Below are positions 2,981 to 21,360 of a stretch of DNA of 24,139 bases, in pieces. The stretch is taken from contig CBDCEW010000046.1 of NCBI GenBank assembly GCA_965215885.1, positions 1 through 24,139 on the forward strand. Direction: 5' to 3'. The DNA comes from Candidatus Moanibacter sp. Lineage in GTDB: Bacteria > Verrucomicrobiota > Verrucomicrobiia > Opitutales > UBA2987. A program made the translations under genes and the position numbers. The notes under the pieces are model-generated. The model was not told the origin of the DNA and ran no database searches. It worked only from the letters and a program-made list of their open reading frames with translations. Position 1 is the stretch's first letter; the number at the start of each line of letters is the position of its first letter.

Positions 2981-3940
2981 CTAATGGAGTGAAAGCAACG
3001 TTCTGCGAATGAGGGTGTGGGCGAGTGATATTTTATACCGGTTGTGTTGCTGAGGTTCTGCCCCCTGCAGGAGAATGTCAGCAGCTTGAGCGGCGGTGTC
3101 TGCATCTAACGCTCTTCCCTCGAGAAACCGGTTTGCATCCGCCGACTGGTGGGGTATGTTCGAGATAGCGCCAAGCGCGACGCGCGCCTTTCTTAAGATA
3201 CCGCCTTTTACCATACCGGCTGCGGCACAACTGACGAGGGCCCAGTCGAAGTCAGCTTTTTCCGTGACCTGAAGATAGGCGCTGGAAGGGCGTTCCAACG
3301 GGATTTGAACACTCAGTATAAGATCCGCGTTCTTGAGGGAGTTGTGGGCATAGGGATTGAACCAGGCATCCTGATAGAAATCTTCCATCGACATCTTCAG
3401 AATTCCGCCTTTTCGACGGACGGTGGCGGTGGCGTCAAGAGCGGTCAGAATTACCGCCAAATTGGAAACGACGGGGCTGATACAGGGATTGCCCGAAAAG
3501 AGGCTGTGGTATTTATTCTCTCCTTCGCGTGCGTAGCACATCACTCCCTTGTTTTTAAGGCACTTGATGTCCCGATGGCGGTAATACCAACACCGCGAGT
3601 GCTGGGCAAGATTGCCTCCTACTGTTCCCATGTTTCTGATTTGAGGCGATCCCACACGTTCCGTGGCTTCAGCTAAACCGGGAAATGCGCTCCTGATACC
3701 GGTGTGTGAGGCCAATTCCTGGAGGATAGTATTGGCCCCAACGCTCCAGGAAGATTCGCTCTGCACGATAGTATCGATTCCGGGCAATTCCTTGATATTT
3801 ACAAGCCGGTCAGGTTCGATAACAAAATCCTTCAATTCGCCTAGAAGATCGGTCCCGCCGGCGAGAAACCGACCGGATTTTCCGACCAGCTCGACAGCGC
3901 CTTCCGCTGAGTTCGCCGTCACATACTGAAATTGCTTCAT
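2981..3940 (-). CDS. Xanthine dehydrogenase family FAD-binding subunit (PaoB/YagS-like, with 4Fe-4S insert)
   Basis: AGGTDL, SPQIRNMGTVGGNL and the Cys cluster RCWYYR..C.K..G..C...C. Confidence 0.93.
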   Translation of the reverse strand: MKQFQYVTANSAEGAVELVGKSGRFLAGGTDLLGELKDFVIEPDRLVNIKELPGIDTIVQSESSWSVGANTILQELASHTGIRSAFPGLAEATERVGSPQIRNMGTVGGNLAQHSRCWYYRHRDIKCLKNKGVMCYAREGENKYHSLFSGNPCISPVVSNLAVILTALDATATVRRKGGILKMSMEDFYQDAWFNPYAHNSLKNADLILSVQIPLERPSSAYLQVTEKADFDWALVSCAAAGMVKGGILRKARVALGAISNIPHQSADANRFLEGRALDADTAAQAADILLQGAEPQQHNRYKISLAHTLIRRTLLSLH

Positions 3941-3954
3941 CGTCGCATGGTTCG

Positions 3955-6093
3955 TTAAGCGGGAGATTGAAAGATCTGTGAAAAGAGATTCGGCGAGTCG
4001 TTGAAAGCAAGATCCATTTTCCCTTCCTGCACTCGGCCCAACGCGGCGAGGACCTTGTCGGGTGTAATGGGCAGGCTGGTGACACGTTTACCGATGGCAT
4101 TGGCCACGGCATTGGCAATGGCAGCGGCCGTGGGTATCGTGGTCGGCTCGCCGATACCGATTACCCCCCTCTCCGGCATTTCAAAAAGAACAACCTCGAT
4201 ATCCGGCATATCCTGCGCTCCCGGTATCTTGTATGTTTCGAAATTCTGGTTGAGGACAATACCACTGGCGCCATCCATTATTCGTTCCTCAAATAAAGCG
4301 TATCCGATCCCTCCGATGATGCCTCCGTAGACCTGGCTCTCGCATGTCTTGCGACTAAGGACGAGGCCACAGTCTTGGACGCATAGAACCCTTTTTACGC
4401 GAACGAAGCCGGTTTCAGTATCGACCTCTACCTCTGCCATCTGCACTCCACCGACACCACGTGAGGAGAGACCTTTCTTCCATTCTCCCTGTGCAACGAG
4501 GGGATTAACCCCCAACTTACCGCAGGCGGTCGACCAGTTAGGACCGATCGGATTCTGCATGCCGCTGATTTCCTTCAACTCTTTTAACGCGTTGTGACAG
4601 GCGTCGTAAACAGCTGGAGTGACGGAAGCTGCAGTCGTGCTTCCCCCGCTACCTCCGGAGGGCGGAAAATGGGTATCACCGAGACGCGCCGTGATGGCGG
4701 AGGGATTCATTCCGAATACTTCCGCTGCCACAACAGCCATTAATGTCCGGGTTCCCGTTCCCAGGTCTTGTGTTCCGCATCGTACCTCCACGGACCCGTC
4801 CGCGTTAATTTCCACTTCCGCTTTAGTACCGCGCCCGCCGCCGCCCCACGTGGCACCACCTAGGCCTATACCGGATTTTACGACTCCCGGCGAACTGCCC
4901 GGTGGCCGGTAGTTCTCCTTCCATCTGAATTGTTTCGCCGCCAGTCGCCACTCCTTTTGCCGTGTTTCGTCGGGATCGTTTTTCAGGCGAAGATCGAGAG
5001 GATCCATACCCATTTTCACGGCAAGTTCATCCATAATCGATTCCATACCAAACGATGCTTGTGGATGGCCAGGCGCGCGGTAGGCCCGGGAGGAGCCGGC
5101 ATTGATCGCCACACCGGTCTGGCTGACGCGAATGTTGGGAATCTCATACAAGTAGGGCGCTGGAAATCCCGCTCGCCCTCCCCCTCCTTCCGAAGAGGGT
5201 CCGCCGGCGTAACCGGAAGTGCCAAAGGCCTCCAGTTCGTAGGCCAACAGCTTGCCCTCGCGGTCCGCTCCAAGCCGGATCTTTTGAAAGGATGAGGGTC
5301 GGTTTCCGACAGCTTTCATTTCGTCAAACCGGGGCAACATCAGCTTAACCGGGGCGCCGGTTTCCATCGTCAGCCGAGCCACGAGCACACCCTCAACTCC
5401 GGGTCCGAATTTTGAGCCGAATCCGCCTCCCATAAAATCGCTTAAGACGCGAATCTTACTCTCCGGCATGTCGAGATTTCGAGCCAGTCCGTCGCGCACG
5501 CTGAAGATCCCCTGCGTGGAAGACCAGACAGTCAATTCACCCCCCTCGGACGCCGCGGTGTTACCGTGGGTCTCAAGAGAATTGTGCAGCTGAACAGGAG
5601 TATTGAAAAATCCTTCGACAATAAACGCTGCCTGGGCGAAGGCCTCGTTTACATCCCCCTCTTCTTTTATCCGCGGTTCGCCGAGATTGGGATAGCCTTG
5701 AAAGACTTGTGGGGAATCCGGCTTTACCGCTATTTCTTCATGCACGACAAAAGGAAGCGGAGTGGCCTCTATCTGGATTTGCCTCAGGGCATCTTCGCAA
5801 ACCTGCTTGGTGGTGCCCGCCACGGCCGCGAGTTCCTGGCCATAATAACGAGCCGTAAATTCGACTTCCTGGGAGAGGATGGCGGCACGCACCCCCCGAA
5901 TCTTTTTCGCTTTTGAAAGATCAATAGCGTGGATTTTCGCGTGCGGCCAGGGCGATCTCAGAATCATTCCGAAAAGCCATCCTTTTGGTTGAACGTCAGA
6001 AGCATATTTTGCCTCCCCTTTAACTTTCAAAGGGCCGTCAACGCGGTCGATCCTCTTGCCGATTACTTTCGGCTCTTTTGGCCAACTAGGCAT
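3955..6093 (-). CDS. Xanthine dehydrogenase family molybdopterin-binding subunit (PaoC/YagR-like)
   Basis: RVDGPLKVKGEAKY, LRSPWPHA, MGGGFGSK, YRAPG, QDLGTG, SGGS, GIGEP (catalytic Glu). Confidence 0.95.
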   Translation of the reverse strand: MPSWPKEPKVIGKRIDRVDGPLKVKGEAKYASDVQPKGWLFGMILRSPWPHAKIHAIDLSKAKKIRGVRAAILSQEVEFTARYYGQELAAVAGTTKQVCEDALRQIQIEATPLPFVVHEEIAVKPDSPQVFQGYPNLGEPRIKEEGDVNEAFAQAAFIVEGFFNTPVQLHNSLETHGNTAASEGGELTVWSSTQGIFSVRDGLARNLDMPESKIRVLSDFMGGGFGSKFGPGVEGVLVARLTMETGAPVKLMLPRFDEMKAVGNRPSSFQKIRLGADREGKLLAYELEAFGTSGYAGGPSSEGGGGRAGFPAPYLYEIPNIRVSQTGVAINAGSSRAYRAPGHPQASFGMESIMDELAVKMGMDPLDLRLKNDPDETRQKEWRLAAKQFRWKENYRPPGSSPGVVKSGIGLGGATWGGGGRGTKAEVEINADGSVEVRCGTQDLGTGTRTLMAVVAAEVFGMNPSAITARLGDTHFPPSGGSGGSTTAASVTPAVYDACHNALKELKEISGMQNPIGPNWSTACGKLGVNPLVAQGEWKKGLSSRGVGGVQMAEVEVDTETGFVRVKRVLCVQDCGLVLSRKTCESQVYGGIIGGIGYALFEERIMDGASGIVLNQNFETYKIPGAQDMPDIEVVLFEMPERGVIGIGEPTTIPTAAAIANAVANAIGKRVTSLPITPDKVLAALGRVQEGKMDLAFNDSPNLFSQIFQSPA

Positions 6094-6095
6094 CC

Positions 6096-6196
6096 TTTAA
6101 TCGCTCCGGGTTCAATTCCCCGAAGCTTGCTTCGTACCTTCAATTTTGAGATCTGGAAACTCAAATGCCTCGGGGCTTGCCCCGAGGATCTTTACC
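6096..6196 (+). mobile_element. Non-autonomous IS200/IS605-like double-hairpin element, copy 1
   Basis: TTTAA-tcgctccggg...CGAAGCttGCTTCG...CCTCGGGGCttGCCCCGAGG-atcTTTACC; identical to 9266-9366. No terminal inverted repeat or target duplication. Confidence 0.8.
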
Positions 6197-6844
6197 CGAT
6201 ACAACTTTGGTTTTGGAAGCGGTTTTAACGCCCGCTGCATCGAGCGCTGCGTCGAAAACTCGGGGATAGGTACCGCAACGGCAGAGGTTACCGGAACAGG
6301 CCTCTCGAACCTCCGCTTCATTGGGGTGTGGATTCGCCTCGAGGAGGGCCGAAAGACTTATGATAAACCCCGGCGTGCAATAGCCGCACATAAGAGAGTC
6401 ATTCTTAACGAAAGCCTCTTGAAGCTTTGAAAGCCTCCCTTCTTTGGCGAGGCCCTCAACTGTCGTGATACTCCGATCCTGGGCCTCGATTGCCAAAATC
6501 ATGCACGAATATATGGGACTTCCATCGAGCAGAACGGTACAGGCACCACAGGTGGCGCGGTCACACACTTCCTTCGCTCCCGTTTCCGTGGAGTGGTTGC
6601 GGAGTACATCGAGGAGGGTGACGCGGGGCTCGAGCACAAATCTCTTATCTCTGCCGTTAATCATCAGGGTGATTGGTACGGCTTCCGGTCCGTTGACGCT
6701 TTCGCGATTTGTGCGTTCCAGTTGCTCGGCCAGGCCTTCGGCATGGACTGCTGCGCTCGCCACAGCCGAGGAACCGACTCCTTTGAGAAACTGCCGGCGG
6801 GTGATGGAGTGATTGCTTACGGTCCTTATTCTTCTCTCCCTCAT
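6161..6844 (-). CDS. 2x[2Fe-2S] subunit with Tat signal (PaoA/YagT-like); last ~11 codons supplied by the inserted element
   Basis: TRRQFLKG twin-arginine motif, CDRATCGAC..C, CGYC...CRC. The tail GKDPRGKPRGI is read from the element. Confidence 0.93.
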   Translation of the reverse strand: MRERRIRTVSNHSITRRQFLKGVGSSAVASAAVHAEGLAEQLERTNRESVNGPEAVPITLMINGRDKRFVLEPRVTLLDVLRNHSTETGAKEVCDRATCGACTVLLDGSPIYSCMILAIEAQDRSITTVEGLAKEGRLSKLQEAFVKNDSLMCGYCTPGFIISLSALLEANPHPNEAEVREACSGNLCRCGTYPRVFDAALDAAGVKTASKTKVVSGKDPRGKPRGI

Positions 6845-7518
6845 TCCGACAGGTAGCGATTCTTTGCTTCCAGATACTCGGCAGGCGTGTCGATATCGTC
6901 GTTTACGCCTAAATCCTCCGTCTGTAAAGTGCGAACCAAACCGGAGTTCACGTTTATTACATTCTTAAGATGAAGATACCGTCCGGAGGACATTTCCGGG
7001 GCCAGCGTCCGAGGGAGAATTACGGGATGACCGTTCCTTGCACCCGCCCGTGGTTGGCAGATGCTCCGCGGATGATTACGGGCAAAATCCATTAGATTAC
7101 TTACTGTGGAAGCTTTCACTTGCGGCTGATCACCCAAGACGATCGCAAAATGTGTAATGTCTTCCCTCCAGCCTTTCCATTCGATTCCACATACTACCGA
7201 ACTGAACATTTCGGGCGTCGACTCGGGATTGAGGATTCGGGCATCGGAGGGAAAACGCAGGCGATCGAGTTCTTCGATCAAGGTGTAGTCGTCTTTGTAG
7301 CAGACGATGGCTAATTGGACGAACTCAAGTGATTGATAAAGGCCGATAAGGTGGCCGATTATTGTCGATTCGTTCCAGGGCAGCAGGAGTTTCGATCTGC
7401 CCATCCGGGTCGACTTACCTGCTGCCAGTATCATCACTCCCGGTTTGAATGATCCAGGGCACACTGAATCCGAGAGTTGAACCAATTCCGAGTCTTCGGC
7501 GGCGTTTTCAGCCTCCAT
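6841..7518 (-). CDS. mocA: Molybdenum cofactor cytidylyltransferase-like nucleotidyltransferase
   Basis: ILAAGKSTRMGRSKLLL, LGDQP, GHPV, DIDTP. The stop overlaps the next ATG (ATGA at 6841-6844). Confidence 0.8.
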   Translation of the reverse strand: MEAENAAEDSELVQLSDSVCPGSFKPGVMILAAGKSTRMGRSKLLLPWNESTIIGHLIGLYQSLEFVQLAIVCYKDDYTLIEELDRLRFPSDARILNPESTPEMFSSVVCGIEWKGWREDITHFAIVLGDQPQVKASTVSNLMDFARNHPRSICQPRAGARNGHPVILPRTLAPEMSSGRYLHLKNVINVNSGLVRTLQTEDLGVNDDIDTPAEYLEAKNRYLSE

Positions 7519-8301: not shown

Positions 8302-9265
8302 GCTATACTCGCACAGATCCCAGTTTCTCTAGAAAAAGATATACGCAGAAAGTGGAATTAGCAAGCGATTCGGAGGAGATGCAGAGTTTGTTTCTCGGTA
8401 GCGATCTCTCAAACCGAAATTTCTAATTCTTCATAGCAAAGAGAGTGATGGCGGGGTGGATTATGGTTGTTTGACCTATTTTCGCTTAATTATAGGATAG
8501 GTGGAATCATTCTTACGGATTGTGGCTCCAAGTTTAGATTCATCCCGCGCAGCCGGATCAGAAAGTGGTCGCGGAATCCGAAACGACGACTTTTTCAGCA
8601 GTATCCACTTCGGGAGTCCGACAGAAACTCATATCGCAGAGACGAGATATGTTCCGACGCTTTCCACTTTCGATTATACTTACCGCCCTGATGTTCGGGG
8701 GCGTGGCCTATTTCTGTCTTCGCGACGAACCTGACTCAAAACGGGATTTGAGTGCCCCGGCAGAAAAGACTACGGAATATACCCGGTTGAATCCGGGAGA
8801 CATGGGCAAGCCAGGGCTTGGAGGAGGGAGCGGAAATCCGGCTCCTCGACCGGAGGAGTACTCTAATCTGCTGAATCATAAAACGATAGGGATTCGGGAT
8901 CGCTTGGCTGAGTATGACACAGTTGCCGACAAAACCGAATATTTGACCGAGAGATCTGCCGAACGTATCCGTCTGCTCCGTTTGTCAAAGGGGGAGGCCA
9001 TTGTGAGGGTGGAGGAGCGACTACAAATGGATGATTCAGGGGGTTGGATGTTGATTAGTCAGGTGGCTATGCTGGCAGACCGAATTCTGGTGACACCCAC
9101 CGATGAGAGGGCTCGAGAGAAACTCGAATTGATCGCGGAAAAGGAGGGTTATCATCTGGTCAGAAACAGTCCTTATTCCCCGCTCTTTAAAGTCGTGCTG
9201 CCCGATGCGGGGCTGAATTCTATTCCAGTAAGCATCGAATTGATCACCATTTCAGGGAAAGGGAG

Positions 9266-9366
9266 TTTAATCGCTCCGGGTTCAATTCCCCGAAGCTTGC
9301 TTCGTACCTTCAATTTTGAGATCTGGAAACTCAAATGCCTCGGGGCTTGCCCCGAGGATCTTTACC
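9266..9366 (+). mobile_element. Non-autonomous IS200/IS605-like double-hairpin element, copy 2 (in-frame in the S8 prodomain)
   Basis: Base-for-base identical to 6096-6196; translated as LIAPGSIPRSLLRTFNFEIWKLKCLGACPEDLYP. Confidence 0.85.
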
Positions 9367-10588
9367 CAGCCGAACCGGACTATCTATACTTTCCAGGCAA
9401 AACGCCGGATGATCTCTTTCTGGAGACACAGTACGCTCTCGAGCGAATTGAAGCGTTTTCAGCTTGGGAGTTCTCGACAGGATCCTCTCAAGTGGTAGTG
9501 GCGGTGATCGATTCCGGAATCGATCTCGATCATCCCGATTTGGTTGAGAGTCTGTGGACAAATCCAGGGGATTCGAGCTTCGATGGCCAGGACAACGATG
9601 GGAACGGCTTTATCGATGACATTAACGGATGGGACTTTCGGAGCAATGACAACACCCCCGAAGGAATGACGAATCACGGCACTCACGTCTCTGGAATCAT
9701 TGGGGCGAATGGAGACAACGGTGTCGGTGTTGCGGGAGTAAACTGGAGCATAGGCCTCATTTCGTTACGAGTGGGTAGTTCAGTTTTTCCCACCTCCAAC
9801 ATTATTGCGGCTCTCGAATATGTTAAGTTCCTCAAAGAAGAAAGAGGAATCCCAATCGTTGCCACGAACAATTCCTATGGTTCATCCTCGCTCAGCAGCG
9901 CCTTGCAGAGTGCCGTAGAAGCGCAGGAGGAGGCGGGGATTTTATTCGTGGCCGCAGCCGGTAATAATGGGAATGATAACGACCTCACTCCCCATTATCC
10001 GGCCGGCTTCGTATTCGATCATATTATCAGTGTTGCGGCTACTACGGGAGGAGACAATTTGGCCGACTTTTCCAATTTCGGCGGATCAACCGTCGATATG
10101 GCGGCGCCGGGCTCACAGGTACATTCAACCATCCTTGGCGCGCAGTACGGGTACATTAACGGAACTTCCATGGCTGCCCCTCAAGTGACTGGCGCCGTCG
10201 CCCTCTTGAAGGCTGCCGATCCTACGCTGGAGTGGGATGACCTCAAGCAGTTGATTCTGAGCAATGTCGATCAGCTAATGGGTTTGTCGGGAAAGACGGT
10301 AACCGGTGGACGTTTGAACCTGCTTCGCGCCATGGAAGCCGCGGTCGGGCTATCTCTGCCTGTATTGAGAATAGACTCACCCCTCTCTCGTGTGGTTCGA
10401 ACGGTCGAGGTCGGCTCGAACTTGCTCGTGGAGATCGAGATCACCGTTGACGGGCAGGTAATTGAAGACCTCAGCGGTACTCTACAGTGGGAAGTGTTTC
10501 CGACCAGCGCCGGAGTTCTGATTGAAGAGAGGGGTCCGACTGGCGCGATCCTGAACTTTCCTGCTGTAGATGATTACAGGGTTCAGGT

Positions 10589-11910
10589 CAGTACTGTCCG
10601 GTTATAAGTCAAACAACTCCAACTGTTTAGGAATGCGGTGTTCATTGAAAGTGTAATCGGTTTCTGTAAGTAGTTCAGTCATAGGAGTTTTCTCAAATAG
10701 GGTGAAGCTGAGAATCTGTAGGATTTTGTGCAAACTGATCTCCAGGCGAAGGCGTTTGCGGATGATGGCGATGAGCACATAGACGCTGACGGCAATCCAG
10801 ATTTGAGTCTTCACAGCATTCTCGGAGGTGCCGAAAAAGCTCTTGCTGCGCAAGTGTTGTTTGATCCATTTGAAGAACAATTCGATCTGCCAGCGTAAAC
10901 GGTAAATCTGGGTGATGATTATGGCTGGGAGGGCAAACTGGTTGGTGAGAAACACGAAGCGCTCGGAACTGTCGGGGTCGAGGTAAGTGATACGCCGGAG
11001 TCTTTCGGGGTAGGCCTTGGCAGGATAGAAGCTGACCAGGGCAACGGTCTGGTCCGAACGCAGACCGGTTGATTTGTCGACCTTTTGAGAGTAGAGGCGG
11101 CGAAACTGAAAGCCGCGGCGGGCGCGTGTGACGAAGAAAGAACCGCATTGTGCGATCCGATAGAGGCGCTCGTAATGCAGATAGGCTCGGTCCATTACAT
11201 AGTAAGCACCGGCCTCGGGGATGATGAGATCCAGAATGTTTACGTCGTGAACTTTTCCATCGGTAATCTCGATAAAATAAGGGATAGAGCCTCTGAGATC
11301 GAGAAGCGTATGGACCTTCACCGCCCCCTTGTGCTTGCGGAAACGTGCCCACGGGAGAGTGATAGACATAGATCGATCGTGGTGGAGTCCAGAGCGTAGA
11401 GCGTATTGTCCAGGTCGATGCCCAGATCCTCGTTTGAATACAAAGGACGAGCCATTGCGATGAGGACCTGTGCAAAGTCGGCGTAGATGCGCCAGTCTCG
11501 TTTCTCGTTGGCATCGGCGAGCGTGCTTTTGGATACTCCGCTTCGAATCCCTGCGTGGTATAGTTTTGGTTGTACTGCCCGCAGGCAGGTTTCGATGTCG
11601 CGCAGACTCTCCCGGTAGGTCAACTCGGCAAAACCCATGCAGAGAAATTGTTCGAAGCAACTGAACTTTTGAACTTTGTAGTCGCCTCCGTAGCGTTGGA
11701 CGCAATCGATGGAACTGATGGCGTCGGAAGATAATCTATGATTTGAGAAAAAACGAATCGCCCTGTATACATGATTTGGACCCTCGAAATTTTTGAGAGT
11801 CCACAAGGCTTTTTGCAACTTCAAGTCTGAACTACAGCAGAAATCATATGTACAATGTTGGTTAACAATCGATTAACCTGCGTTCCTAGAAAAACAACCG
11901 GACAGTAGTG
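10589..11910 (-). mobile_element. IS4-family insertion sequence, copy A (1322 bp)
   Basis: Inverted repeats cagtactgtccggtt / aaccggacagtagtg; 9-bp target duplication GGTTCAGGT at 10580-10588 and 11911-11919. Confidence 0.95.
10602..11772 (-). pseudogene. Frameshifted IS4-family DDE transposase
   Basis: Near-identical to 16610-17779 but with a 1-bp deletion near 11356 and single-base insertions near 11706 and 11724. Confidence 0.85.
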
Positions 11911-13781
11911 GGTTCAGGTGACTTATTTTGAGGACGGTTTCAGCCAGTCCGATGAGATTTATGGCAGAGTAGGGGATGGCGACATCCTCACGGACGGTCT
12001 CTCCGCGTTCTGGAAATTTGATGATGGCGGTGGCCTCACGGCAGTGGATTCCTCGGGATCGGGACGACACGGAACAGTTGAAGGTTCGACTTGGAGTAAC
12101 GGTATTATCGGGGGCGCCCTTGATTTCGACGGAGTTAATGACAAAGTATCATTTCCCAGCCCATCCCTTGCGTCATTCAGCCTCAGTGCATGGGTAAGCG
12201 CCGACAGCAAGGGAAACAGTGTATTGCCCAGGATAATTCATACGGACGAATTCATTCTCTATTGGGGCCGAAGGGATGGAGATCCGGATCCTCTGGAGCC
12301 CGACAATCGGACGGTGAAATTTGCAAGTGAGAGAGATGATGAAGAAGGAATCTGGAATTCAGCCAACAATGTCGTGGATGACGGGCCCTGGTATCATATA
12401 GCTGCTGCCTACGATGCCACTTCCGAATACAACGCACCGGTGATTTACGTCGATGGAGAGAGAGTGCCGACCGGTCCACAGATTGCGCCATCCGGTGATA
12501 GGTTCGTCGCAGCGGGCATTGGCTATATCGGTGACAATGGAGCTGATGAGAGGAATTGGGATGGCCTTATCGACGAAGTGCGGATTTATGATCGTCTGTT
12601 GAAGCCCTCAGAAGTCTTGGGTTTGGCCTCTCAACATGATTTAAACGAACTCCCGGTGGTGTCTGCTGGAGGTGACTCCTCGGCAGTGGTTGGGCTTCCT
12701 GTCAGCTTATCCGGTCAGGCGGACGATCCGGACAACTCTCCCGCTTCACTTTCCCTTATTTGGGAAACGGTATCAGGTCCCAATACGCCCCAGTTTTCAG
12801 ATCCAACGTCGTTGGTTTCGCAGGTCTCTTTCCCCGCTTCCGGAGACTACCGTCTTCGATTGCTCGCCTCGGATGGAGATGCCACAGCCTCCGCTGATGT
12901 CACTTTCACGGTAACCGAGGAGGCCGCAGTTCCGCAGATAGAGCTCACCGTTGATCGGGTCGTGGCTCTCAGGAATCCTAACGATCCGATTAAAGTATTG
13001 TTCACCGCCGATATCACTCCAACTTCCGATCTTGTGCTCACGGTAGGCCTTTCCGGCTCCGCTGCTTCCGGGGTGGACTTTGAACCCTTTCGCGCTTCTA
13101 TTGTCATCCCCGCTGGAGACGACCGGGTCGAGGAATCTTTCATCCCTCGTGCTGCTACCGATCCCGGCACTCCGGAGCTGTTGGCGCGCATAACTCTGCT
13201 ACCGGGTGAGGACTATGGGCAGGGTCAGGTTTCGGAAGTGGAGGTTAGTCTTCTCCCTTACCTCTGGGAAAACTGGCTCCTTCGATATCTCGGTGACAGT
13301 TCGATACCGTTTTCGGACGAATTGGTGTTAGCAGACCCGGACAATGACGGTGTTGCAAATTTCCTGGAGTATGCCCTGGGTGGCACTCCTTTGAACGATA
13401 GCGGCGCAATTACGGAAAATCCGCTACCCGAAGTCTTTCTCCTTACTCTCGATGATGAAGCCTATCTCGCGCTGAAGATGCACAGGATTGTCGGAACGGA
13501 GGGCGTCGTTTACAACGTCGAAGTATCCGATGGCCTTGAAGCGAACAATTGGTTGGGTGGCGGATCGCACACAGGGTTGTTCCAGATCGTTGATCAAGGC
13601 GATGGAACGGAGGAGGTCGTCTATCGGGATCTTACACCGATAAGCGCGTTCCTTCGCCGTTTTATCCGACTGCGGGTCGAATTTGAGTTGTCGAACTGAG
13701 TTTCTTATTGAAGACTCAGAATAGTCCTGCCGGCGAATAAGGTAGTCGACATGAACCGTTTAAAGGGGTCAAACTGGAAGA

Positions 13782-16596: not shown

Positions 16597-17915
16597 CAGT
16601 ACTGTCCGGTTATAAGTCAAACAACTCCAACTGTTTAGGAATGCGGTGTTCATTGAAAGTGTAATCGGTTTCTGTAAGTAGTTCAGTCATAGGAGTTTTC
16701 TCAAATAGGGTGAAGCTGAGAATCTGTAGGATTTTGTGCAAACTGATCTCCAGGCGAAGGCGTTTGCGGATGATGGCGATGAGCACATAGACGCTGACGG
16801 CAATCCAGATTTGAGTCTTCACAGCATTCTCGGAGGTGCCGAAAAAGCTCTTGATGCGCAAGTGCTGTTTGATCCATTTGAAGAACAATTCGATCTGCCA
16901 GCGTAAACGGTAAATCTGGGTGATGATTATGGCTGGGAGGGCAAACTGATTGGTGAGAAACACGAAGCGCTCGGAACTGTCGGGGTCGAGGTAAGTGATA
17001 CGCCGGAGTCTTTCGGGGTAGGCCTTGGCAGGATAGAAGCTGACCAGGGCAACGGTCTGGTCCGAACGCAGACCGGTTGATTTGTCGACCTTTTGAGAGT
17101 AGAGGCGGCGAAACTGAAAGCCGCGGCGGGCGCGTGTGACGAAGAAAGAACCGCATTGTGCGATCCGATAGAGGCGCTCGTAATGCAGATAGGCTCGGTC
17201 CATTACATAGTAAGCACCGGCCTCGGGGATGATGAGATCCAGAATGTTTACGTCGTGAACTTTTCCATCGGTAATCTCGATAAAATAAGGGATAGAGCCT
17301 CTGAGATCGAGAAGCGTATGGACCTTCACCGCCCCCTTGTGCTTGCGGAAACGTGCCCACGGGAAGAGTGATAGACATAGATCGATCGTGGTGGAGTCCA
17401 GAGCGTAGAGCGTATTGTCCAGGTCGATGCCCAGATCCTCGTTTGAATACAAAGGACGAGCCATTGCGATGAGGACCTGTGCAAAGTCGGCGTAGATGCG
17501 CCAGTCTCGTTTCTCGTTGGCATCGGCGAGCGTGCTTTTGGATACTCCGCTTCGAATCCCTGCGTGGTATAGTTTTGGTTGTACTGCCCGCAGGCAGGTT
17601 TCGATGTCGCGCAGACTCTCCCGGTAGGTCAACTCGGCAAAACCCATGCAGAGAAATTGTTCGAAGCAACTGAACTTTTGAACTTTGTAGTCGCCTCCGT
17701 AGCGTTGGACGCAACGATGGAACTGATGGCGCGGAAGATAATCTATGATTTGAGAAAAAACGAATCGACCTGTATACATGATTTGGACCCTCGAAATTTT
17801 TGAGAGTCCACAAGGCTTTTTGCAATTTCAAGTCGAAAACAGCAGAAATCATATGTAAAATGTTGGTTATCAATCGATTAACCTGCGTTCCTAGAAAAAC
17901 AACCGGACAGTAGTG
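16597..17915 (-). mobile_element. IS4-family insertion sequence, copy B (1319 bp)
   Basis: Same inverted repeats as copy A; 9-bp target duplication ATTGAGAGC at 16588-16596 and 17916-17924. Confidence 0.95.
16610..17779 (-). CDS. IS4-family DDE transposase (intact, 389 aa)
   Basis: ALDSTTI, VMDRAY, and the YREK signature YRLRWQIELFFKWIKQ; N-terminal ESLRDIE. Confidence 0.95.
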   Translation of the reverse strand: MYTGRFVFSQIIDYLPRHQFHRCVQRYGGDYKVQKFSCFEQFLCMGFAELTYRESLRDIETCLRAVQPKLYHAGIRSGVSKSTLADANEKRDWRIYADFAQVLIAMARPLYSNEDLGIDLDNTLYALDSTTIDLCLSLFPWARFRKHKGAVKVHTLLDLRGSIPYFIEITDGKVHDVNILDLIIPEAGAYYVMDRAYLHYERLYRIAQCGSFFVTRARRGFQFRRLYSQKVDKSTGLRSDQTVALVSFYPAKAYPERLRRITYLDPDSSERFVFLTNQFALPAIIITQIYRLRWQIELFFKWIKQHLRIKSFFGTSENAVKTQIWIAVSVYVLIAIIRKRLRLEISLHKILQILSFTLFEKTPMTELLTETDYTFNEHRIPKQLELFDL

Positions 17916-19142: not shown

Positions 19143-19317
19143 TCGAAGTCAACCAATCCTAGTAGCGAAGGTTTTCGGTAGGGGAAACATTATGGTAACC
19201 CTAATGGACTGATTATCCATACTCAAGCCGGTAACAGCGATGCGGGTGAATCCTTTTGCCAAACTGACCTGAATTTTCATCGTACATGCGGGTTGGCGGG
19301 CGGCTTATTTTGACTAG

Positions 19318-19724
19318 ATTCGGTGGCAACAGCATCGAAAAGCTTCCGCTTTCTGCTACACGCTTTGATTCGGGACGTAGTCCCGGCGTGCCGGGACGGG
19401 AGCATTTCGTTGAGCCACTTTCTCAAGTTGCACACCCGTTTGATCCGGCTAGCGAGATCGGGATGGGGCCGCAACGACTTTAAACTCTCTCCCTCCTCAT
19501 CGGTTGCTTTCCCTCTATCCGTTGCCGCACCTCCCCCTATCGTGCAATTTCGCGTCTTTGGCGGGCAAATCCCATCATTGGGGGTGAGATAAACTACCTG
19601 TCCCTAAATTCCTTCCTAAACCGGTTCCGATTGGATTCGTGGTACTGCGGAGCCATCCGTGGGCAAGAGTCAGACTCGCTGTGAGAAGTTGCACTCTGCC
19701 GTACGGCAGAGTTTGATCCGGCTG
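19318..19724. repeat. Mosaic intergenic repeat cluster: module X, gtcccggc-gccgggac palindrome, modules Z and Y
   Basis: Matches to 14560-14595, 2534-2553, 16088-16115 and 14619-14651. Confidence 0.75.
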
Positions 19725-19889
19725 CCCGGCGGGGGGCGCGCCTCACCTGCAATTAAGCGGCACTCTCTCGGGCGGCAACCCAATAGGCCCATGCAATCAG
19801 GATCAATTGAAGGGGCACCCGAATAAAGAGATAGATTGGCCCCCAGGCGTGTCCGCCCATAGGGATTCGATTGACCGCCGCGTAGATGT

Positions 19890-20645
19890 TCACGGGCAGG
19901 AACGGCGACCTTTTCGAGCCCGGAAGGTCGCTCCGATTGTGAAGCGCGAAGTTGTAACCGCGGTAGTCCCGACATGCTCAACCTGTTCAAAGCCGGTCTC
20001 TTCCATCAGAGCGACAAGATCCCGAACCGGGATCGCTCCTCCAATTCACTGAGACCAGGCGTCGACGCTGCTCGCGAGTTCTTCCGGGAGATCCGTTTTC
20101 AAAGCGATATCGGCGCATTGCAGACAACCGTTGGCCCGAAGTACACGATGAATCTCCCGGAACGATTCCTCTTTACGGGGTGAAAGGTTAAGGACTCCAT
20201 TGGAGATGACGACGTCGAACGTTCCGCTTTTATAGGGAATCGCCTCGGCGGCGCCTAACCCTACTTCCGTGTTCGTGACGCCTGCCAGCGCCAGATTTCT
20301 CCGTGCGCTGTCCACCATTTCCGGAGTCAAGTCGATGCCGCACACGCGTCCGCCCTGTTTCACCAACCGACCGGCAACTAAGAGGTCGAAACCTGCGCCG
20401 CAGCCGATATCGAGAACCCAATTGGTTGGACCAATCGTCCCCAGGGTAAAAGGATTCCCAACACCGCAATAGGGGCGGAGCATCTCGGGAGGCGCCTTCG
20501 ATATGTCTGCCGTCGCGTAGCCCAGAAGTTCGGCACCCTCTCTACCGGTAGGATAGTTGAAGTGGCCCTCCGCTGTCCGGGAGACTTCTGCGTATCTCTT
20601 CTTAACTGCCTCCAGGATTTCGTTAGTGTCGCGATCGGTTTTCAT
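19890..20645 (-). CDS. Arsenite methyltransferase (ArsM)-like SAM-dependent methyltransferase, probable selenoprotein (Sec at TGA 20046-20048)
   Basis: CGVGNP, VLDIGCGAGFD, GIDLTPEM, DVVISNGVLNL. Reading through TGA gives AWSQ-U-IGGAIP...TGFEQV...GATFRARK to a stop at 19890, matching the ArsM W..CIAGA...GF..V tail. Confidence 0.8.
20009..20045 (-). promoter_or_regulatory. Candidate bacterial SECIS element
   Basis: mRNA UGA-AUUGGAG-GAGC-GAUCCCG[GUU]CGGGAUC-UUGUC-GCUC; a G-initiated apical loop begins 18 nt after the UGA. Confidence 0.7.
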
Positions 20646-20729
20646 TCTTATATAGTTCAGGCAATTTCTGTCCAATTGGCGAAATATTTAGATACCCCGT
20701 CCGCGGCGTGCCGGGACGGTGAATTTCCG

Positions 20730-20876
20730 TTCCTCCTCGATCTCCCTGCCCCATTGCTCCATGTCAAAGTCAGCGAGCTACTTACGGAAAGCCTTTGGCC
20801 CATCGGCTTCAATACACAGTGGTTTGCCACCTGCCTCACGAAGGGCAGCGGCTACGGACTTTCCTGCATCCGGGTT
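20730..20876 (-). pseudogene. Decayed coding fragments (SDR-like piece joined to a small antitoxin-like piece)
   Basis: Translates NPDAGKSVAAALREAGGKPLCIEAD-GPK-AFRK*LADFDMEQWGREIEEE. The assignment rests on recalled motif resemblance only. Confidence 0.3.
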
Positions 20877-20877
20877 G

Positions 20878-21360
20878 TTATGTCTCACTGAGCGTAGCCT
20901 CAATTTCGGTCGCGATGGCTGCGCCAAAATTCATGTGTGCTTCGCTCTCCCAGTGCAATCCATCCAATTCACTGGGCGTGACAATTTTAGCAGCATCAAG
21001 GAACCCGCATCCGAGGGTGTTCGCAAAGTATCGATAATGTTGCGCCAGTTCCCCGGATTTAAAATGCGCGCCTTCAAATGCGAAACGATCAGGGCTCTCG
21101 ACTGGATTGAAATGCGAAGGTGATACGAGAATGACCTTTGGTGTTGGAGCTGACCAATTCAGAACCAGTTCCGCGAGTTTAACAGCGCCACGCGCGATAT
21201 CGAACGGGGTTATGCCGAATCGAGCTTTCAAATCATTACTGCCAAGGGCGATTACGACCAAGTCTAAAGGCGAATGCATCTCAAGAGACAAGGGCAGATA
21301 TTTTCGGCCATTGCGACCATCCCAGCTACTATCATCCCGCGTGGTGGTACGACCGTTTAA
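20878..21360 (-). pseudogene. SGNH/GDSL hydrolase lacking its N-terminal GDS block
   Basis: The frame begins at the element edge with LNGRTT..DD...RNG..YL...HSPLDLVVIALGSNDLK...DGLH. No GDS motif is found upstream. Confidence 0.85.

Follow-up and report, generated by a model that had tools for sequence, protein, structure and literature searches.

An unannotated single-selenocysteine gene for an ArsM-like methyltransferase in Candidatus Moanibacter

The minus-strand frame at 19890-20645 of the window, by which we mean the whole 24,139-nt stretch of Candidatus Moanibacter sp. DNA analysed here, is a real, unannotated selenoprotein gene, and its UGA at codon 200 is almost certainly a selenocysteine codon; the decoding as Sec, judged by comparative evidence rather than labelling, would appear very close to certain. 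The product would be a one-domain, one-Sec SAM methyltransferase of the ArsM fold, and to the whole of this reading, including methylated arsenicals or Sb(III) as its substrate class, we give a probability of about 0.5. From the ATG at 20645, the first stop is the TGA of codon 200 (20048-20046), after AWSQ; 51 sense codons follow, reading IGGAIPVRDL...GATFRARKGRRSCP, up to a further TGA at 19892-19890, and with UGA200 decoded the product has 251 aa. The initial annotation had given the same TGA and the same 51 codons, exact in coordinates and counts, and its proposal of a 251-aa selenoprotein with Sec200 is upheld by the conservation of the codon and by the sel machinery of the genome, both described below. 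The Met start is shared by P0002, a 95%-identical homolog; a TTG start at 20675, which gives the 209-aa ORF of the ORF callers, was rejected, as it lies inside an interspersed repeat and homologs begin at the ATG. The features are as follows.

19890..20645, minus strand: coding sequence of a 251-aa class I SAM-dependent methyltransferase, ArsM-like, with Sec200 (NCBIfam/Pfam, AlphaFold, Foldseek)
20046..20048, minus strand: in-frame UGA, codon 200, read as Sec; motif W-S-Q-U-I-G-G (UxxG), equivalent to CmArsM Cys224 and human AS3MT Cys206
20018..20034, minus strand: bacterial SECIS upper stem-loop, 7 bp, GUU loop at 20027-20025, 18 nt past the UGA (model constraints; branch conservation)
19893..20045, minus strand: post-UGA segment, 51 codons; helix 207-217 and the last two strands in the model
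19890..19892, minus strand: true stop, the second TGA (codon 252)
20391..20411, minus strand: DIGCGAG, residues 79-85, which we take to be SAM-binding motif I (sequence; Pfam methyltransferase matches)
20466..20468, minus strand: Cys60 in the CGVGNP loop, candidate partner of Sec200, two residues ahead of the CmArsM Cys72 position
20196..20204, minus strand: S-N-G, residues 148-150, with Gly at the position of the essential As-binding Cys174 of ArsM/AS3MT (human Cys156)
20659..20722, no strand assigned: genome-wide interspersed repeat immediately upstream of the start codon, with about 30 blastn matches in the genome

The UGA codon, its hairpin and the decoding machinery

Conservation is the decisive non-chance evidence for the Sec reading. 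TGA occupies column 200 in each of the 103 covering loci, among them that of the window (97 are distinct), in homologs down to 38% identity; the DNA set comprised the window's own locus, 2 from a genome scan, 80 from metagenomes (one not covering the column) and 21 from genomes of another phylum, and, having been selected by similarity, the TGA loci represent the near family only. In that other phylum, 22 of 251 genomes had a match at E <= 1e-45, each with an internal TGA, and inspection of 7 of the 26 genome-scan loci gave 2 with TGA, 2 with Cys and 3 that do not cover the column. Among 60 relatives of the source genome, 11 genomes gave 13 weaker matches, and the codon is TGC or TGT in all 12 that cover the column. 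Alignment of homologs at this column had been proposed in the initial annotation as a check on the Sec reading, and both the TGA of the near loci and the cysteine codons of the related genomes speak for it. Three Cys-type homologs with the SNG motif (L023, L024 and L037) come from genomes in none of which selB was found, two of these genomes being 90% and 81% complete. In the protein search, considering the best 120 of 7094 matches (8000 scored candidates), 103 entries end exactly at the Q199 column and 17 continue with IGG; column 200 of the latter is W in 15, S in 1, R in 1 and C in none. The 15 Trp entries, all within P0003-P0041, are probably a gene caller's reading of TGA under the wrong genetic code.

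The frame beyond the codon is conserved as well: each of 16 full-length homologs shares 22-28 of 45 residues with the window protein. Four runs, each from a different study, supplied contigs for comparison over 19500-21000; the TGA is not a base-call error, since one contig, from another study, departs from the window sequence at just one site (20658) along 19692-21000. A contig of a 97%-identical strain differs at 21 sites over 19908-20651, and none of the 19 listed falls in the TGA or the hairpin; 6 of the 7 listed post-UGA differences are synonymous. From the one RNA run came only a contig of 228 nt (20135-20361); it ends short of the UGA and does not demonstrate transcription. The first stop lies at most 60 codons past the Sec codon in 51 of the 103 loci, making the unfused form the commonest; other loci extend into AhpD-type, DUF2284, UXPK, HMA or GcvH-like domains, and 19 run on into a domain with GC/AC-x-x-TGA.

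The hairpin GAUCCCG-GUU-CGGGAUC, which the initial annotation had noticed behind the UGA, was located at 20034-20018: it has seven Watson-Crick pairs and a 3-nt loop that opens with G, 18 nt from UGA to loop, and on manual checking it agrees with each of the four constraints that PMC13188914 quotes for bacterial SECIS elements. The GAGC/GCUC base by which the stem was said to be extendable fared less well; it exists as sequence, but RNAfold favours another lower-stem register over 50-80 nt, and the lower-stem columns differ among homologs. Folding energy (-18.1 kcal/mol over 54 nt) was considered as proof of a SECIS and rejected as not significant, with z = -1.43 and equal stability in 16 of 200 shuffles and in 8.4% of 5000 synonymous recodings. 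The full seven-pair register is rarer: all seven Watson-Crick pairs are retained in 0.8% of 5000 such recodings, and a comparable hairpin follows 2629 of the 204,388 six-frame TGAs of the genome (1.3%).

Across the family, the SECIS occurs in two registers that lie 4-6 nt apart and code for different peptides. In the branch of the window gene, 93% of cells are paired between columns 15-21 and columns 25-31, and three of the pairs show two-sided changes; this test used 15 of the 23 rows with I or V after the UGA, picked with the pair counts known, and thus leans towards structure. Its covariation score was matched by 1 of 500 shuffles, and the best slid control was 70% paired. In the remaining family the stem lies at columns 19-25 and 31-37, 92.6% paired over 71 sequences (0 of 500 shuffles as good), and 78 of the 79 rows without I/V have 7 of 7 pairs in this shifted register. 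A single SECIS structure for the whole family was rejected, because most sequences use the shifted stem and the window register pairs just 50% of cells over the 71 sequences. A hairpin held at SECIS distance while its sequence and encoded residues vary is as selection on RNA structure predicts.

The source genome can decode such a codon. A selC-selD-selA-selB cluster lies at C102:145923-150461 (L166), with selA at 491.7 bits, selB at 330, selD at 355.7 and tRNA-Sec at 62.1, all above their cut-offs; ARAGORN reports a tRNA-SeC(tca), and selD has an in-frame TGA of its own. The initial annotation had asked after these four genes, and it had named missing Sec machinery, close relatives with TGC or TGG and no conserved hairpin, or a base-call error as signs of a false reading; none of the three was found. 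Among 61 genomes of the order sample, the source genome included, selB is present in 5 (3 of 3 in genus g3, 0 of 5 in genus g2). It is also present in 23 of 23 TGA-carrying genomes, a co-occurrence that we rejected as evidence, since it is weak to uninformative against a phylum background of 234 of 251. A crude whole-genome selenoprotein scan recovered the window gene among mostly chance matches and missed selD, and it was set aside. A tRNA-Stop(tta) called by ARAGORN at C4:68867-68936 has mismatched stems and was set aside as a false positive or remnant.

Fold, active site and proposed chemistry

The ArsM relationship proposed in the initial annotation is borne out by structure. The AlphaFold model (47 sequences) has a mean pLDDT of 95.3, and the post-UGA residues form a helix (207-217) and two strands (219-227 and 236-245), so that a stop at 199 would be predicted to leave the fold incomplete, without its final helix and two strands. 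ArsM/AS3MT structures make up all 12 of the best Foldseek matches (TM-score up to 0.73, 27-31% identity) and 5 of 5 PDB sequence matches at E <= 1e-10, and D79, G81 and G83 of the DIGCGAG motif are invariant in alignment A2. Profile alignment places Sec200 at CmArsM Cys224 and Gly150 at Cys174 (SNG versus SNC); Cys72 falls on Val62, with Cys60 two residues earlier, and Cys44 has no equivalent. A quick tree of 68 rows sets 13 canonical Cys ArsMs apart (SH-aLRT 94) and places the window protein beside P0002 inside the unfused I-G-G branch.

Gly150 is found in all of the best 120 of 7094 proteins and in all 103 loci, and Cys60 in the same 120 of 120 proteins and in 99 of the 102 loci with data. 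Since the latter is short of all loci, Sec is the only invariant chalcogen; in the Sec homologs L157, L158 and L162, Val or Ala replaces Cys60 and Sec is the sole active-site chalcogen. The pairing of Sec200 with the Cys of CGVGNP, as first proposed, is a plausible inference, with the qualification that Cys60 is not the canonical Cys72 and is missing in those 3 of 102 loci. According to the parts of the literature consulted, CmArsM binds its metalloid by Cys174 and Cys224 and needs Cys44 and Cys72 for the first methylation only (PMC6138428), human AS3MT binds As(III) by three Cys, MAs(III) by two and DMAs(III) by one, and its C156S and C206S mutants are inactive in both methylation steps (PMC3877260).

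The proposed mechanism would run as follows. SelB with Sec-tRNA would bind the hairpin 18 nt downstream and insert Sec at UGA200, and translation would continue to TGA252. Sec200, in place of the metalloid-anchoring Cys224, would through its selenolate capture a soft, thiol-loving metalloid arriving as a thiol adduct and would hold it beside SAM for methyl transfer; the substrate may be held by Sec alone or by Sec and Cys60, the latter as second ligand or resolving thiol. A Cys60-Sec200 selenylsulfide would then be re-reduced by a thiol reductant, a form of recycling suggested by relatives that fuse an AhpD-type CxxU domain, the reductant being presumably supplied in trans here. Because Cys174 and Cys44 are gone, three-sulfur binding of As(III) in the ArsM manner and the four-cysteine disulfide cascade could not work; the likeliest substrates would be trivalent metalloids needing one or two ligands, namely MAs(III), DMAs(III) or Sb(III), and the enzyme would be a paralog that complements canonical ArsM, not one that replaces it. 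For arsenical chemistry there are the Thermus ArsM that methylates arsenic with one conserved Cys (PMC8649762), the separate over-cut-off arsM match in 12 of 23 carrier genomes, and homolog L113, one of the 19 loci with the GC/AC-x-x-TGA domain, which lies between acr3-arsC-arsR and a canonical arsM and passes the ArsM/AhpD cut-off. Against it, the Cys156 (= Cys174) reported in PMC3877260 to be essential in human AS3MT is Gly here, the queries found neither acr3 nor canonical arsM in the source genome, acr3 adjoins the gene in none of 23 carrier genomes, and ars-type neighbours are seen at 8 of 102 loci as against 15 with rhodanese, DsbD or DsrE. On balance, the substrate is slightly more likely to be a non-canonical arsenic or antimony compound than a Se/S species.

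The unfused form passes no NCBIfam model, and arsM surveys and methyltransferase counts would miss or mislabel it; 103 of the best 120 homologs (of 7094) are stored cut at the Sec codon. At a little under even odds, the SNG/Sec branch is a separate family that works with a single selenolate and no cysteine cage on a substrate other than arsenite (Se/S/Te or late organo-arsenicals); the same reading, at the same odds, would have the branch widespread and its unfused majority form shortened in protein databases, and would make the enzyme a neglected source of volatile methylated metalloids or chalcogens. The gene offers a small single-domain, single-Sec test case for what Sec-ArsM-like enzymes methylate without Cys174. 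No biochemical study of the branch was found in the literature searched, whose supplements may list this branch.

Neighbourhood, substrate and competing readings

The gene stands alone between interspersed repeats, as the initial annotation had it, with no ars genes among its neighbours. On the upstream side lie a GDSL-like hydrolase and an NCS1 permease; the downstream side has a 2OG-Fe oxygenase, a sulfotransferase-like ORF and a transposase. Around the gene there were no promoter-like sites and no Rfam matches, and 3 terminator-like sites were at chance level. In the source genome (90.3% complete) the queries used found no acr3 and no canonical arsM; one ArsC-family gene and one LMW-phosphatase gene lie on other contigs, amid housekeeping genes. 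A survey of homologous loci took in 102, of which 54 reach 3.5 kb and many are short; with a query set drawn from the loci, and with kin that are not independent, it placed ars-type genes beside 8 of them and rhodanese, DsbD or DsrE genes beside 15. The former comprise L113, with a full acr3-arsC-arsR set and a canonical arsM, one further locus with a canonical arsM, and six with an ArsR-like regulator only. Of the 23 genomes that carry the Sec gene, 19 have acr3, never adjoining it (the nearest is at 55 kb), and 12 have a separate arsM match over the cut-off, one of them broken. In G065, an arsM that scores above the cut-off and contains an internal TGA was considered as a Sec form and turned out to be a broken canonical gene.

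Several other features of the window were observed. The short repeats that flank the gene, at 20659-20722 and about 19290-19750, belong to several families with tens of copies (up to 86 blastn matches over one position) and have no Rfam match. A subtilase ORF (8565-10607) and a LamG/PKD ORF (11918-13699) lie on the same strand with a frameshifted copy of a DDE transposase between them, an intact copy of which is at 16610-17779; the region 8565-13699 may represent a single large gene for a secreted protease that an IS has split. A stretch of about 34 codons common to the ORFs at 8565-10607 (plus strand) and 5929-6228 (minus strand) suggests, from sequence, that a repeat of about 100 bp was inserted in frame in the subtilase gene. 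At 2981-7518 (minus strand) there is a xanthine dehydrogenase/aldehyde oxidase-like cluster, with a Mo-cofactor subunit and a MobA-like NTP transferase by Pfam and FAD and 2Fe-2S subunits by ORF inspection.

The best-surviving alternative keeps the selenoprotein and changes its substrate. As a chalcogen methyltransferase, the protein would take S, Se or Te on Sec200 from a rhodanese/DsrE-type carrier, and SAM would methylate the Sec-persulfide or perselenide to give methanethiol, methylselenol or dimethyl compounds. The absence of the As-chelating Cys174 from all 103 loci, the rhodanese, TsoB-like rhodanese/DsbD and DsrE neighbours in 15 of 102, the fusion of homolog L083 to a GcvH-like carrier domain and a source genome without ars linkage all point this way. 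However, those 15 loci include near-copies, selenoprotein genes may cluster through selenium supply, the neighbours in the window include no sulfur carrier, and the fold is nearest to ArsM; we regard this alternative as possible but doubtful.

Plain methylation of arsenite is less probable again. Here Sec200 and Cys60 would suffice to take As(III) to MAs/DMAs, as might be argued from the Thermus ArsM that, according to the passages of PMC8649762 consulted, methylates As(III) with one conserved Cys; moreover, NCBIfam calls two fused relatives "arsenite methyltransferase", L113 lies inside an ars cluster, and the gene is the only ArsM-like one found in the source genome. But the protein scores 185.8 bits against the NF008823 cut-off of 263, and of the cysteines at CmArsM 44, 72, 174 and 224, at least three of which define an ArsM in the survey criterion given in PMC5552862, it has position 224 only, as Sec. 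The separate grouping of the canonical Cys ArsMs in the tree and the separate arsM match in 12 of 23 carrier genomes are also against it. The initial annotation had doubted an arsenite substrate from the absence of an ars operon; Gly150 for Cys174, in 120 of the best 120 of 7094 proteins, is a stronger ground, and we hold the arsenite reading unlikely.

Two alternatives concern the frame itself. Reading the second TGA (codon 252, after ...SCP) also as Sec would give a 280-aa double selenoprotein like UXPK-star, and related families do have a second Sec; 36 nt beyond that TGA there is a weak hairpin whose loop opens with G. Its fold z is 0.12, however, the NF047649 score is 257.1 with read-through and 257.2 without (a true member reaches 500), in the closest homologs the stop comes 47-50 codons past Sec, and the alignment of the 97%-identical strain ends at 19908, short of codon 252, all of which leaves this second Sec very improbable. 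Scarcely credible, finally, is a TGA that is a real stop (of a pseudogene or a 199-aa protein), a sequencing error or a Trp codon: the homologs annotated as ending there or carrying Trp (103 and 15 of the best 120) and the unremarkable hairpin energy have to be set against a TGA kept down to 38% identity, a downstream frame that is open and conserved, the agreement of an independent contig and, in the model, a cut that would remove the last helix and two strands. UGA as Trp was rejected in its own right, as TGA ends 847 of 1763 ORFs of at least 400 codons, the commonest stop, and the sole tRNA-Trp reads CCA.

Relation to known families

Sec-containing ArsM-like proteins are already catalogued, tabulated since at least 2008, and the recoding itself is ordinary. 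The nearest models are NF047649 (MTase_UXPK_star), NF041537 (ArsM_AhpD_UU) and NF041536 (ArsM_DUF2284_UU), all of them fused proteins with two or three Sec, for which PMC13188914 gives Haft and Tolstoy 2025 as reference. The window protein scores 257.2 bits on the first (cut-off 460; the second Sec in the C-terminal UXPK-stop is absent, and the L150 control scores 500.4), 256.7 on the second (cut-off 510; no AhpD region, with the L113 control at 553.3) and 245.3 on the third (cut-off 575; matching only profile positions 6-250 of 459). It shares with all three the UxxG Sec site and the methyltransferase domain from end to end (query 3-248, profile 6-251; E about 1e-73 to 1e-76), and the fused loci L150 and L113 have, like the window gene, TGA, SNG and CGVGNP. 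Unlike them, it has no AhpD, DUF2284 or UXPK extension and no second Sec, and its SECIS stem lies at columns 15-31, whereas theirs lies mostly at columns 19-37. Fusions beyond these three models were also seen: a C-terminal GcvH-like domain (L083:3378-3971), a C-terminal HMA domain with the methyltransferase part split over two frames (L038:4593-4997), and an N-terminal extension of about 290 aa on the Sec methyltransferase domain (L148:610-2067).

An unfused selenoprotein named "arsenite methyltransferase" (NF008823/PRK11873, UxxG, one Sec, representative WP_011987699.1) is tabulated in PMC13188914, in the table consulted, as "experimentally verified", citing Fomenko et al. 2007, and the Sec-ArsM family also appears in tables of PMC9312934 and PMC2398784. 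Like the window protein, this entry is ArsM-like, unfused and has one UxxG Sec at the C-terminal catalytic Cys position; unlike it, the window protein is below the NF008823 cut-off, the representative being compared here by its tabulated description. The 2007 work reportedly tested cysteine mutants of mammalian AS3MT rather than Sec incorporation in a bacterial protein. With canonical ArsM/AS3MT (CmArsM 4FR0/4KW7/6CX6, CrArsM 5EVJ, human AS3MT 8XT7), the window protein shares the fold, SAM motif I, the N-L-S-P-x-K segment and a chalcogen at the Cys224 position, but it has Gly150 for Cys174, Val62 for Cys72 and no Cys44, is 251 aa long against 321-387 aa for the solved chains, and stands in no ars operon. 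It resembles the Sec-ArsM-like domain of the fused families, is a member of none of the three as they are defined, and is not a canonical ArsM.
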